Source of the DNA: a virus
Lineage: Duplodnaviria; Heunggongvirae; Uroviricota; Caudoviricetes
Length of the DNA stretch: 6,879 bases
Strand: one strand, 5' to 3'
Virus record (IMG/VR): IMGVR_UViG_2681813233_000006
Shown one piece after another: positions 1-4,844 of this stretch (position 1 is the first letter of the stretch; each line of letters begins with the position of its first letter). The notes below the pieces were generated by a model. It saw nothing but the letters and a program-made list of their open reading frames with translations, did no database searches and was not told the origin of the DNA. Made by a program: the position numbers and the translations under genes.

Positions 1-14
1 TGGTTTGGGAGAAG
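1..14. repeat. Inner arm of the left inverted repeat / left crossover site of the invertible segment (truncated by the window edge)
   Basis: Positions 1-14 (TGGTTTGGGAGAAG) are the exact reverse complement of 1865-1878 (CTTCTCCCAAACCA). The match stops at position 15 versus 1864. Confidence 0.7.
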
Positions 15-391
15 CGGCAACGAGGAACGTCGGAACGGGTACCGGCCAAGTACCAGATATGAGTAGTTTTACAACGGGGCACTCTGGAGCAGCAGACTGG
101 CCGATTCCTAAATCTGGATGGAGTAAGGGGCCGGATGGGGTAATTACACAATGGGGTATTTTCGGTTTCCCCGTTGGACAGACAGGGACGAATGTTGTTT
201 TCCCGCTACCTTTCCCCGCGCGGGTCGAATCAATTACACTGACAATAGCAGATATCCAGGAGTCTCTGCTTTCTCCAACAACCATGCCTGCTTATGGAGT
301 TAACTCAACTGGTACTTCAAGAACGGGTTTTACAGCCCGTATGTCAGGCGTCGGTGGGTTTAATCTTTGCTATATAGCGAAAGGGAGATAA
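1..391 (+). CDS. Tail-fibre protein, C-terminal variable (receptor-binding) segment, Sv-like; 5'-partial. The ORF is open to the window edge in this frame; the track's start at position 5 is a TTG, not a real start.
   Basis: Frame is open from position 2 (GGT TTG GGA GAA...) to the TAA at 389-391. Gly/Thr/Ser-rich translation typical of fibre tips. It is followed 4 bp later by a tail-fibre assembly gene with its own Shine-Dalgarno, and it starts inside the inverted repeat that defines the invertible segment. Confidence 0.75.
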   Translation, partial: GLGEAATRNVGTGTGQVPDMSSFTTGHSGAADWPIPKSGWSKGPDGVITQWGIFGFPVGQTGTNVVFPLPFPARVESITLTIADIQESLLSPTTMPAYGVNSTGTSRTGFTARMSGVGGFNLCYIAKGR

Positions 392-395
392 CAGA

Positions 396-839
396 ATGAA
401 TAAAGTTAAAAGTGTTTACAGCCCGTCCGAAAATGCAATCTACAACGCAGCGCTATATGAAAGTTATATCAAGGAGGGGACATGGCCGCAGGATGGTATT
501 GAAATCAGCGATGAGGATGCTGTCAGATTTAATGGGGGAAATAAGCCAACAGGAAAAATGCTGGGAATGGTTTCAGGGACCCTTGCATGGGTTGATGAGC
601 CGCCGCTTTCACCAGAACAGAAAATATCAGATGCAGAAAACATGAAAGCCACATTTCGTGCAAAAGCTGACAGTGAAATATCCTGGCGTCAGGATGCTGT
701 TGATGCTGGTATCGCAACTGATGAAGAAACTTCAACTCTCACCCAATGGAAGAAATACCGTGTGCTGCTGATGCGTGTTGATACGTCAACAGCACCCGAT
801 ATTGAATGGCCTACGCCTCCGGCAGCTCAGGCCAGATGA
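396..839 (+). CDS. Tail-fibre assembly protein (Mu U / P2 G / Tfa family chaperone), 147 aa
   Basis: Shine-Dalgarno AAGGGAG at 381-387. C-terminus ...WKKYRVLLMRVDTSTAPDIEWPT... carries the conserved tail-fibre-assembly C-terminal motif (as I recall it from E. coli TfaE-type proteins). Positioned directly after the fibre tip. Confidence 0.85.
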   Translation: MNKVKSVYSPSENAIYNAALYESYIKEGTWPQDGIEISDEDAVRFNGGNKPTGKMLGMVSGTLAWVDEPPLSPEQKISDAENMKATFRAKADSEISWRQDAVDAGIATDEETSTLTQWKKYRVLLMRVDTSTAPDIEWPTPPAAQAR

Positions 840-1413
840 CATCAGGCGCGGTGCTGGTATCTGTTGCCGTCACCGCGTCAATGTAATCCAGCACGACGTT
901 AAGTCGGGTTGTTTCTGCCGGCGTCAACTTCCGTCCGGCCTGTAATTTCAACTGAATCAGACTAATGGAAGCTATTGCAGTATCCATCAGCGACTGGCGC
1001 TGTGCTTCTGCTGCATCTACTGCGGCGCTATGCTGTGCCTCGGTATCCGTCACCCATTTCTCACCATCCCATTTATCGTATGGCGTTAACGGGGCTATAG
1101 TGGTTGTATTTTCAGGGTAATCACCCGGAGTTGTGATTTCTTTGGCGTCTCCCGTTTCGGTGTTATAGACGATTTCACCGCGATGGTCTGGCACATATTC
1201 CCATGAGTTTAAATCTGCCGAACGGCAGATTGCATAACCAGCCTTATGTATACCAGGTTCATCCAGACAGGAATATGCCGGGATACCAACACCAACGGCA
1301 AGATATTCATTTGAAGTGGAAATATATTCCCGAGTTTCACCATCATAGCTATAGACGGTAATATTCCCCGCCTTCGTGGCAATAAGCTCGCTATTTAATA
1401 CAGCGTTATCCAT
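811..1413 (-). CDS. Alternative tail-fibre assembly protein (U'/Tfa'-like), 200 aa, partner of Sv'
   Basis: C-terminus ...DTSTAPDVIWPELPEA has the same conserved Tfa motif. Its start codon overlaps the stop of the upstream minus-strand fibre-tip ORF at 1411-1415. Convergent with the + strand Tfa, overlapping it by 29 bp. Confidence 0.8.
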   Translation of the reverse strand: MDNAVLNSELIATKAGNITVYSYDGETREYISTSNEYLAVGVGIPAYSCLDEPGIHKAGYAICRSADLNSWEYVPDHRGEIVYNTETGDAKEITTPGDYPENTTTIAPLTPYDKWDGEKWVTDTEAQHSAAVDAAEAQRQSLMDTAIASISLIQLKLQAGRKLTPAETTRLNVVLDYIDAVTATDTSTAPDVIWPELPEA

Positions 1414-1919
1414 TATGCAGCCCTCACGATAAAGTTAAATGCAATATTTCGCGCACGTGTTTCCGTTGATGTTCTGGCAACACGTGATGCATCAAAATAA
1501 TAATTCGCCTGTTTATATGTACCACCTGTCGCAATTGATGCGAGATTTGGTGTCAATGTTAAAGAGGCAAATGCGCCGACAGTATTATTATTTGGCCCCG
1601 TGGTCATATCCAAAAAGCTACCTGTAATATTTTGCAGCGTATCGCTCTGAGCACTCAATAACGCTCGCCCACTGTCCACTCCACGCCCATCATCCCAGCC
1701 ACGAATAAACTCACCACGTAAATCAGGCAATTTATTTGTCGGGTAAGCCTTTGCCAGCTCCGGGTATTCTTCAGCAGAAAAAGCTGCACCATTGCATTTC
1801 AACCAGCCTGTCGGTGGTGTAGCTGAAGGCCACGGAACAGGCACACCAACCGGTAATGCAGAGCCTTCTCCCAAACCAACGTTTAAGAAAATGCAGCGAT
1901 TACGACTAACTGGCATCAT
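1413..1919 (-). CDS. Alternative tail-fibre C-terminal variable segment (Sv'-like) with a phage tail-collar-like motif; silent in this orientation. The part inside the invertible segment is about 1413-1879; the ATG at 1919 is probably not a real start.
   Basis: Translation contains GWLKCNGAAFSAEEYPELAKAY, which resembles the tail-collar domain of Mu S / P2 H-type fibres. The reading frame continues across the right inverted repeat, as required for fusion to the constant fibre part after inversion. Confidence 0.7.
   Translation of the reverse strand: MMPVSRNRCIFLNVGLGEGSALPVGVPVPWPSATPPTGWLKCNGAAFSAEEYPELAKAYPTNKLPDLRGEFIRGWDDGRGVDSGRALLSAQSDTLQNITGSFLDMTTGPNNNTVGAFASLTLTPNLASIATGGTYKQANYYFDASRVARTSTETRARNIAFNFIVRAA
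1866..1891. other. Right crossover site (hix/gix/cix/pix-like 26-bp site with AA core at 1878-1879)
   Basis: TTCTCCCAAACC-AA-CGTTTAAGAAAA has the two imperfect inverted half-sites AAACC...GTTT around a 2-bp core. By my recollection it matches hixL (TTCTTGAAAACCAAGGTTTTTGATAA) at about 19 of 26 positions. The inner half-site coincides with the 14-bp inverted repeat. Confidence 0.65.
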
Positions 1920-1946
1920 CCCCGGTTTTTATTCAGGGAGATGATC

Positions 1947-2513
1947 ATGCTTATTGGCTATGTACGCGTGTCAACAAATGACCAGAACACCGATTTGCAA
2001 CGTAGTGCGCTGAACTGCGCGGGATGTGAGCAGATTTTTGAGGACAAAATCAGTGGCACTAAGTCCGACAGACCGGGGCTGAAAAAACTACTCAGGACAC
2101 TATCGGCAGGAGACACGCTGGTTGTCTGGAAGCTGGACAGGTTGGGGCGCAGTATGCGGCATCTTGTTACGCTGATAGAAGAGTTGCGCCAGCGTGGTGT
2201 GAATTTCAGAAGCCTGACTGACAGTATTGATACCAGTACCCCAATGGGCCGTTTCTTTTTTCATGTCATGGGTGCCCTGGCTGAAATGGAACGCGAACTG
2301 ATAGTTGAACGTACCAGGGCAGGGCTGGCTGCAGCTCGTGCCAAAGGCAGAGTAGGTGGACGCCGTCCTAAGTTGACCACCGAACAGTGGGCACAGATTG
2401 GGCGTTTACTCGAGGCCGGAGAATCAAGACAGCGTATTGCACTGATTTTTGATGTAGGCGTTTCTACCATTTATAGAAAATTTCCGGCAAATAAGATCAA
2501 TGAATCCCCCTGA
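1947..2513 (+). CDS. Serine DNA invertase, Gin/Pin/Cin/Hin family (resolvase-type catalytic domain plus C-terminal helix-turn-helix)
   Basis: Translation MLIGYVRVSTNDQNTDLQR...LVVWKLDRLGRSM...SPMGRFFFHVMGALAEMERELIVERT...GRVGGRRPKL...STIYRKF is near-identical in its conserved blocks to Gin/Hin/Pin as I recall them. The track ORF starts at 1941 (MIM...), but the Shine-Dalgarno AGGGAG at 1935-1940 abuts that ATG and lies 6 nt before the ATG at 1947, which gives the canonical MLIGY N-terminus. Confidence 0.93.
   Translation: MLIGYVRVSTNDQNTDLQRSALNCAGCEQIFEDKISGTKSDRPGLKKLLRTLSAGDTLVVWKLDRLGRSMRHLVTLIEELRQRGVNFRSLTDSIDTSTPMGRFFFHVMGALAEMERELIVERTRAGLAAARAKGRVGGRRPKLTTEQWAQIGRLLEAGESRQRIALIFDVGVSTIYRKFPANKINESP
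1965..2045. promoter_or_regulatory. Probable Fis-dependent recombinational enhancer inside the 5' coding region of the invertase gene
   Basis: In Hin/Gin/Cin systems the enhancer lies within the first 60-170 bp of the invertase ORF, about 100-165 bp from the adjacent crossover site. This stretch (GTGTCAACAAATGACC...GATTTGCAACGTAGTGCGCT...) is in that position and resembles my memory of the hin enhancer. Exact Fis sites are not asserted. Confidence 0.4.
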
Positions 2514-2561
2514 ATCAGCATTATGTTGATTATCCCTGCAAGCAGACAAATACCGTTATTT

Positions 2562-2579
2562 TGTGTGAATAACGACACA
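2562..2579 (+). promoter_or_regulatory. P2-type late-promoter activator site (Ogr/Delta-class dyad TGT-N12-ACA) upstream of the sheath gene
   Basis: TGTgtgaataacgacACA at 2562-2579 sits in the 142-bp intergenic region. Its centre is about 85 bp before the FI ATG, compatible with a -55-centred activator site and a short leader. The -10 element is not clearly identifiable. Confidence 0.5.
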
Positions 2580-2655
2580 ACTGCGCTTAGCTGTTTGTCA
2601 GGCACAATCACTTCAACATAGGGCGAAGCCTAATCCAATCAGGAGGTTCGCCACT

Positions 2656-3837: not shown

Positions 3838-4353
3838 ATGGCTTTACCACGCAAATTAAAACACCTGAACCTGTTTAACGACGGGAACAACTGGCAGGGG
3901 ATCGTTGAGTCGCTGACGCTGCCGAAATTTACCCGCAAATATGAGAAGTATCGCGGCGGCGGAATGCCGGGTGCGGTGGATGTGGATCTGGGGCTTGATG
4001 ACAGTGCGCTGGACACAGAATTTTCCATTGGTGGTACTGAATTGCTGCTGTTTAAACAGATGGGTAAAGCCACGGTGGATGGCATCCAGCTGCGCTTTAC
4101 CGGCTCTATTCAGCGTGACGATACCGGGGAAGTGCAGGCCGTGGAGCTTGTCGTGCGTGGACGTCACAAAGAAGTGGATTCCGGCGAGTGGAAGACGGGC
4201 GAAAGCAACACCACCAAAGTGACCAGTACCAACAGCTACGCGAAGCTGACCATCAATGGTGAGGTGCTCTATGAAGTGGACCTTATCAACATGGTGGAAA
4301 TTGTGGACGGTGTGGACCTGATGGAAGCGCACCGCAACGCCCTCGGCCTCTGA
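3838..4353 (+). CDS. FII: Tail tube protein (P2 gpFII family), 171 aa
   Basis: Starts 10 bp after the FI stop with a Shine-Dalgarno AAGGGGA. Size and position are identical to P2 FII. Translation MALPRKLKHLNLFNDGNNWQG... is typical of myovirus tube proteins. Confidence 0.92.
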   Translation: MALPRKLKHLNLFNDGNNWQGIVESLTLPKFTRKYEKYRGGGMPGAVDVDLGLDDSALDTEFSIGGTELLLFKQMGKATVDGIQLRFTGSIQRDDTGEVQAVELVVRGRHKEVDSGEWKTGESNTTKVTSTNSYAKLTINGEVLYEVDLINMVEIVDGVDLMEAHRNALGL

Positions 4354-4407: not shown

Positions 4408-4710
4408 ATGAGCGATAAGCAGACTGAAAAGACCATTCAACTGGATACCCCCATCAAGCGCGGTAAAACAGAAATCACCGAAATTGTGCTGCGTAAACCG
4501 CAGTCCGGTGCGCTGCGCGGTACACGCCTGCAGGCCATTATGGATATGGATGTAAACGCGATGATGATCGTGATCCCCCGCATCTCCAGTCCGGCACTGA
4601 CTGCACAGGAAATTGCTGAGATGGACCCGGCAGATCTCACTGCCATGTCGGTTGAGGTTGTCACTTTTTTGTTGAAGAAGTCGGTGCTTGCCGGTTTACC
4701 GACAGCCTGA
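4408..4710 (+). CDS. E: Tail assembly chaperone gpE (lambda gpG analogue), 100 aa, zero-frame product
   Basis: Located between the tube and tape-measure genes. Contains the slippery heptamer T_TTT_TTG near its 3' end. Confidence 0.85.
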   Translation: MSDKQTEKTIQLDTPIKRGKTEITEIVLRKPQSGALRGTRLQAIMDMDVNAMMIVIPRISSPALTAQEIAEMDPADLTAMSVEVVTFLLKKSVLAGLPTA

Positions 4711-4844
4711 CGGTTGACGATCTGGTGGCAGATATCGCCACCATTTTTCACTGGCCGCCATCCGTTACTGACGTTATGCCGCTGACCGAAGTGCTGGAAT
4801 GGCGGTATAAAGCGATTCAGAGAAGCGGGGCCAACGATGAGTGA
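4408..4844 (+). CDS. E': gpE+E' tail assembly chaperone made by a programmed -1 ribosomal frameshift at 4665-4671 (joined as 4408..4671 then 4671..4844)
   Basis: The heptamer TTTTTTG at 4665-4671 is in X_XXY_YYZ register with the E frame. The -1 frame is open from there to the TGA at 4842-4844, which overlaps the tape-measure ATG at 4837 (ATGAGTGA). The lambda G/GT and P2 E/E' arrangement is conserved in this position. Confidence 0.75.
4665..4671 (+). other. Slippery heptanucleotide T_TTT_TTG for the E/E' -1 frameshift
   Basis: Codon register checked by hand against the E start at 4408 (ACT TTT TTG in zero frame). Confidence 0.7.

Follow-up and report, generated by a model that had tools for sequence, protein, structure and literature searches.

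Organization of the tail module

The stretch of DNA analyzed here (6,879 nucleotides; 'the window') represents the tail module of an E. coli prophage of the P2 type, with an invertible segment of 1.88 kb (positions 1–1879) that is followed by the gene of a serine DNA invertase and by further tail genes (Table 1). In the orientation of the window, the variable fibre cassette Hv is joined to a constant fibre part located upstream of the window: in the prophage of NZ_AP038810 (L001), which matches window positions 1–2600 at 99.9% in the same orientation and provides the left flank absent from the window, a 479-residue CDS annotated as 'phage tail protein' crosses the left site. The alternative cassette, Hv', is joined to the constant part as a 504-residue CDS in NZ_CM141450 (L002), where the same prophage carries the segment flipped; in the window, its mechanical ORF extends beyond the segment to an ATG at 1919. 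This gene layout is the classic layout of the G segment of Mu, the C segment of P1 and the P segment of e14.

The two convergent tail-fibre assembly genes share a 29-bp 3' overlap (window 811–839), and both assembly proteins end in ...TSTAPD(I/V)(E/I)WP..., so that a common C-terminal coding stretch is read from opposite strands. Further downstream, the gpE/gpE' tail assembly chaperones are located at 4408–4844 (4408–4710, and an ORF of the RefSeq 'GpE family' at 4725–4844), a pair that constitutes the usual programmed-frameshift arrangement of P2-like phages.

Table 1. Features of the window and their coordinates
Feature	Position	Strand	Evidence or remarks
Left crossover site, inner half	1..13	.	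the TT core enters the window with its second T (base 1); 2–13 is GGTTTGGGAGAA
Variable C-terminal tail-fibre cassette Hv	2..391	+	Pfam Gp53-like_C, 1.4e-10
Tail-fibre assembly protein paired with Hv	396..839	+	Caudo_TAP, 9.8e-33
Tail-fibre assembly protein (tfaE-like) paired with Hv'	811..1413	-	Caudo_TAP, 7.6e-31; tfaE annotation in L001
Alternative fibre cassette Hv', silent in the window orientation	1413..1877	-	Phage Tail Collar domain, 1.4e-15
Right crossover site (pixR-type)	1866..1891	.	inner half TTCTCCCAAACC, core AA at 1878–1879, outer half CGTTTAAGAAAA
Conserved motif TGGCATCAT	1911..1919	+	27 nt ahead of the invertase start codon; position constant in e14, in Mu and across many genera
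Serine DNA invertase, Pin/Gin/Cin/Hin family, 188 aa	1947..2513	+	Resolvase 2.6e-53; HTH_7 1.4e-15
Recombinational (Fis) enhancer homologue	1965..2036	.	homology only; G-N13-C 15-mers at 1968–1982 and 2017–2031
Tail sheath, tail tube, gpE/E', tape measure	2656 onward	+	domain search and L001 annotation

The crossover site at 1866–1891

The original prediction had placed at 1866–1891 a hix-like 26-bp crossover site, composed of 12-bp imperfect inverted half-sites around an AA core and embedded in the coding frame of the silent cassette, and this reading is exact at these positions. Read directly from the window, the site is TTCTCCCAAACCAACGTTTAAGAAAA, and its two halves exhibit dyad symmetry at 8 of 12 positions. 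A scan of the 6879-bp window with the Din-family consensus TTCNNNNAAACNNANGTTTNNNNGAA (that is, TTC-N4-AAAC-N-NA-N-GTTT-N4-GAA) yielded 1866–1891 as the sole match, with one mismatch on the plus strand and two on the minus strand; the chance expectation for matches with at most two mismatches is 0.02 per window (200 shuffles). Likewise, a position-weight scan of the window assigned 29 bits to 1866–1891 and 7 bits to the runner-up position. Additional crossover sites within the segment, as present in shufflons, were detected neither with the consensus (≤2 mismatches) nor with the weight matrix.

The site was compared with the characterized hix, gix, cix, pix, mix, nix and bix sites, which were taken from Table 3 of PMC3241671, with pixR and pixL being re-read directly from the e14 element of MG1655, and gixL and gixR from Mu. 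The highest identity is to pixR (25/26), followed by pixL (21/26), mixMI''L' of the p15B Min system (20/26), hixL, cixL and cixR (19/26 each), gix (17/26) and hixR (15/26). The minus-strand ORF 1919..1413 passes through the site as ...IFLNV/GLGEGS... (here and below, the slash marks the junction), that is, the site is indeed located inside a coding frame. Judged by its sequence, 1866–1891 is hence an invertase-proximal crossover site of the Din family (Hin/Gin/Cin/Pin), and of an already known kind.

The AA core had also led to the expectation of a TT core at the left site. Window positions 1–14 are the exact reverse complement of 1865–1878, and base 1 is correspondingly T; the window comprises only half of this partner, since its outer half and the first base of its core fall just before position 1. 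The complete left site, TTCTCGCATACC-TT-GGTTTGGGAGAA, with the full TT core, is found at 3988–4013 of L001 (window base 1 being L001 position 4001), and a complete inverted partner with a TT core is likewise present in most of 80 related loci from viral contigs.

The window thus begins in the middle of the core of the left site. Many other draft-genome and viral contigs (L034, L054, L073, L012, L086, L092, L094, L098, L109, L113, L114, L117, L119, L121–L123, L132, L147, L148, L154 and L158) begin 66–92 nt 5' of the invertase ATG, that is, at or inside the crossover site. Assemblies appear to break at this site, probably on account of both orientations being present in the sequenced culture.

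Natural isomers bound the exchange

The two prophages L001 and L002 are natural isomers. They are identical at 2999 of 3000 positions in the flank on the side of the constant fibre part (Sc), at 1874 of 1876 positions in the segment, and at 2930 of 3000 positions in the invertase-side flank. The segment between the sites therefore inverts in nature, as far as can be judged from these genome sequences, and the existence of a near-identical prophage (segment and both 3-kb flanks) in the opposite orientation indicates that the inversion is very recent. Among 5426 complete E. coli genomes, the Sc–Hv junction occurs in 34 and the Sc–Hv' junction in 531.

Comparison of the four junctions of L001 and L002 bounds the exchange to the 15 bp common to both sites, TTGGTTTGGGAGAAG. 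The base that adjoins the TT on the outside, which is C in the fibre-side flank and G in the invertase-side flank, never leaves its flank, so that the outer limit of the exchange coincides exactly with the predicted core. The inner bound is located 13 bp from the core edge (10 bp in L047/L060); because the inner half-sites are identical, with their first five bases being the same in all loci, the exchange is resolved to 15 bp, or to 12 bp in L047/L060. Mapping of the junctions on natural isomers thus places the strand exchange where the original prediction had located it.

It had furthermore been proposed that the reading frame must be kept on both sides of the site, and the cassettes agree with this proposal: both open with GGT TTG GGA GAA, which encodes GLGE and has the same phase with respect to the core in each, and this frame is conserved in 73 of 79 distinct related sites (one genome per species). 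The junctions read in frame as ...LAYL/GLGEAATRN... (479 residues, L001) and ...LAYL/GLGEGSALP... (504 residues, L002), and the sharing of the frame at GLGE leaves the fibre gene intact in either orientation.

Related loci

Two samples of relatives were inspected: 80 viral contigs encoding invertases with at least 86% identity, and a second sample with one genome per species. In these approximately 160 related loci, the same fibre cassettes are found joined to either flank, and at every locus examined for it, the edge of the exchange falls at the core. Among the 80 viral contigs, little variation is seen in the outer half-site and in the 55-nt spacer, while the sequence of the inner half depends on the attached cassette; more than 40 cassette types are represented, many of which occur on both flanks, and the Hv' cassette of the window was counted 30 times beside the invertase and 16 times beside the constant part. 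L047 and L050 on the one hand and L060 on the other are isomers with inner halves that differ distally (…GAGAT versus …GAGGG); this difference moves together with the cassette, which narrows the exchange in L047/L060 to 12 bp. The core dinucleotides in the one-per-species sample are AA (55), GA (21), AG (2) and TA (1).

The GA-core clade (L129–L142, L149, L160 and L165, from Enterobacter, Pseudocitrobacter, Buttiauxella and others) carries the outer half CGTTTTATAGAT and a 65-nt spacer without the TGGCAT motif, and its fibre frame closes two codons outside the core. In L019 (2420–2445), the right site has kept the core and the outer half, while the inner half is unrelated (GTGCGAGTATTG), and a single cassette is located between the sites; homology to the window ends at the inner edge of the AA core, which fits a past event at the core, and L019 looks like a locked, non-invertible derivative.

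Several loci deviate in other respects. The invertase-proximal site of L052 (2420–2445) carries the fibre-side outer half (GGTATGCGAGAA) instead of CGTTTA(A/T)GAAAA, with exactly 12 bp being substituted before the normal spacer resumes, which could represent either a half-site swap or an assembly artefact. In L025 (554), L036 (50), L037 (552) and L043 (50), the left site has an outer half of the invertase type (TTTTC(A/T)TAAACG-TT-...), so that this type is present at both ends of the segment; this could have arisen by chimeric assembly of both orientations or reflect genuine duplication. Two sites per contig are found in direct rather than inverted orientation in L049 (842 and 2420) and L066 (273 and 2421); if real, such direct sites would favour deletion, and otherwise they may reflect a multi-site arrangement or misassembly. 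L040 contains the right site and the invertase start twice (1037/1118 and 2420/2501), 1383 bp apart, which could be a tandem duplication or an assembly artefact. Finally, L124 (Moraxella), L139 (Chitinophaga MAG) and L143 (Mobilitalea MAG) are very short contigs that encode enterobacterial-type invertases with 74–77% identity, and their labels as unrelated phyla likely reflect contamination or mis-binning.

Invertase, spacer and enhancer homologue

The invertase is 86% identical to PinE, 75% to Gin and 77% to Cin, and the nearest solved structure is that of Gin (3uj3; 1.6e-92). Its N-terminus reads MLIGYVRVS(9)T with the catalytic serine at residue 9, the ORF is intact, and the residues common to Gin, Cin and Pin, including Ser9, are invariant. 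The site is separated from the ATG of this gene by 55 nt, and the stretch from site to invertase start aligns base for base with those of pixR-pinE and gixR-gin.

Within this spacer, the motif TGGCAT(C/G/T)AT is found approximately 27 nt from the invertase ATG, as is the case at 4651–4659 of L003 and 5058–5066 of L004; the spacer around the motif varies between enterobacterial genera. Its conserved position leads us to propose that TGGCATCAT could serve the invertase promoter as an extended -10 element. If so, the location of the motif just beyond the outer half-site would permit autoregulation by the invertase. A simple sigma-70 scan between the site and the invertase gene called no promoter, TGGCATCAT included.

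In P1, the recombinational enhancer is annotated at nucleotides 19–90 of cin, and the corresponding stretch of the window (1965–2036) is identical at 55 of 72 positions, but this stretch is also coding, and the identity could hence mirror only protein conservation. The two putative Fis 15-mers are at conserved positions in the coding stretch, with the second (2017–2031) having a G+C-rich centre.

Discussion

Comparison with known inversion systems

The closest characterized system is pixR/PinE of e14 in E. coli K-12. The two elements share (i) the inner half-site and AA core, which are identical, (ii) a spacer of 54–55 nt to the invertase ATG, with TGGCATCAT in both, and (iii) the order fibre cassette, tfa, tfa', fibre cassette, site and invertase, with segments of 1.8–1.9 kb. 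However, e14 is a defective lambdoid element, whereas the window belongs to an intact-looking myovirus tail module of the P2 type; moreover, the left sites differ in their outer halves (CTCTCGAAAACC in e14, TTCTCGCATACC here), and one of the two cassettes (Hv of the window, with Gp53-like_C) is not the same.

The gix/Gin and cix/Cin systems of Mu and P1 are alike in having 26-bp sites with 12-bp halves and a 2-bp core inside a tail-fibre gene, in the gene order around the segment, and in an enhancer (putative for the window) within the 5' end of the invertase gene. In contrast to the AA core of the window, gix has a GA core, and only 15 bp are common to the two sites of the window element, while Mu has 34-bp perfect repeats. 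In P1, cin faces the segment and cixL overlaps the 3' end of cin; on account of this different arrangement, the P1 region upstream of cin was rejected as a homologue of the spacer. Among P2-like prophages, an invertible tail-fibre segment is found with Fin of Fels-2.

The hix/Hin system of Salmonella exhibits the same site architecture and AA core, together with the catalytic mechanism and Fis enhancer that are expected here (PMC2724282; PMC3798978), but what Hin inverts is a promoter instead of coding cassettes, and hin itself is located within the invertible segment. For the same type of element with the same biology, inversion in P2-like prophages of enteropathogenic E. coli (E2348/69) was observed by sequencing and PCR (PMC4272514), although one locus there is a multi-site shufflon with four variants and the window element has two sites only. 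Inversion in e14 has been demonstrated experimentally (PMC12529663).

Proposed mechanism and alternatives

Given the evidence collected so far, it is very probable that 1866–1891 is the invertase-proximal site of a two-site inversion switch of the Pin type in a P2-like E. coli prophage, and we infer switch activity for the exact sequence of the window. According to what is established for the family (PMC2724282; PMC3798978; PMC3241671, legend to Table 3), dimers of the serine invertase would bind to 1866–1891 and to the inverted partner at the left edge, and the bound sites would be assembled into a synaptic complex with an enhancer that is occupied by Fis and located in the 5' end of the invertase gene. 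As derived from the biochemistry of Hin and Gin (PMC3241671, PMC2724282), all four strands would then be broken at the central AA/TT by cuts offset by 2 nt, with formation of a covalent phosphoserine link, half of the complex would rotate by 180 degrees, and the strands would be rejoined. As the comparison of genomes shows, the 1.88-kb flip joins the constant N-terminal part of the fibre in frame either to Hv (2–391) or to Hv' (1877–1413, minus strand), each with its own assembly protein, and as an outcome the receptor-binding tip of the phage tail changes. Binding, cleavage position and Fis dependence are thereby expected by analogy with characterized Hin, Gin, Cin and Pin.

It is conceivable, instead, that the site is a relic, that is, derived from pix but part of a switch which is frozen in this prophage, either by the A-for-T exchange in the outer half or by an inactive invertase. 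The single base by which the site differs from characterized pixR is in line with this notion, as is the finding that some relatives are decayed or locked (e.g., L019, the inner half of which is unrelated, and a single site whose core is TA). However, the variant CGTTTAAGAAAA and the pixR form are equally common in related elements, the intact invertase has retained all residues invariant in Gin, Cin and Pin, and the near-identical prophage in the opposite orientation attests to a very recent inversion, so that we regard a frozen switch as very improbable. A further explanation would be that the repeat is a by-product of the shared GLGE motif and that the inversions arise by homologous recombination, with no dedicated site being involved. 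Although the 15 bp common to both sites are indeed coding in both cassettes, this explanation is scarcely conceivable: the invertase-side outer half is non-coding and yet fits the family consensus, the spacing between the site and the invertase gene is constant from genus to genus, and the boundary of the exchange falls at the core throughout the loci surveyed. Moreover, 15 bp are too short for efficient RecA recombination.

The minus-strand reading frame open to 1919

Across the right site, the frame of the minus-strand ORF reads K P G M M P V S R N R C I F L N V / G L G E and is directly preceded by a stop codon, and the original prediction had attributed this openness to the repeat. We do not uphold this part: the repeat ends at the core, and the invertase-side outer half and the spacer are not copied from constant fibre sequence. 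Having 17 stop-free codons outside the core has a chance probability of about 0.44, and in the sample with one genome per species a run of at least 13 open codons beyond the site was seen for the fibre frame in 15 of 40 cases, as compared with 41 of 80 for the other two frames. The repeat was consequently rejected as the cause of the openness to 1919, the fibre frame being open no more often than the control frames across species.

Alternatively, the extension might be functional, with the ATG at 1919/1916 and a 14-residue leader providing the silent cassette with a start of its own, from which a free fibre-tip protein would be made. In a study from 2025, the homologous ORF of e14 was treated as a gene, and its inverted form StfE2 was reported to block adsorption of phage T2 (PMC12529663); in addition, the ATG doublet and the open frame are common to the window, e14 and many Pin-type relatives. 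However, the leader peptides MMPVSRNRCIFLNV (window), MMPFACYFFIFINV and IMPCVPKSTIIQNL are poorly conserved when the window is compared with e14 and Mu, the fibre frame shows no preference for being open (see above) and closes after two codons in the GA-core clade, and a promoter scan of the minus strand near 1919 detected no promoter-like site. Furthermore, the ATGATG 'start' is the complement of CATCAT within TGGCATCAT, a conserved motif better placed for the invertase gene. In view of these findings, we consider a functional extension unlikely. A more specific variant, namely that the ATG at 1919/1916 and the leader MMPVSRNRCIFLNV, being located outside the segment, allow the 'off' tip to be made as a free receptor-binding fragment which could mask host receptors and exclude other phages, as was claimed for StfE2 (PMC12529663), appears quite improbable as well. 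If it were true, the switch would toggle two products at once: a fibre tip on the virus particle and, in the lysogen, an exclusion protein.

Implications

The system described here is already known: the main reading of the site is correct, and near-identical prophages are already present in RefSeq. Tail-fibre switches of the Pin/Gin/Cin type have had textbook status from the 1980s onward, and P2-like prophages that carry them have been described. For annotation, the site is of use in that it marks the true boundary of the invertible segment, and identifies the minus-strand 'phage tail protein' of 167–168 residues as the silent half of a switchable fibre gene and not as a separate gene. The crossover site would also account for the frequent assembly breaks at this position. 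Finally, the survey of related loci shows a large pool of fibre tips (more than 40 types in 80 loci) that is shuffled behind one constant junction.
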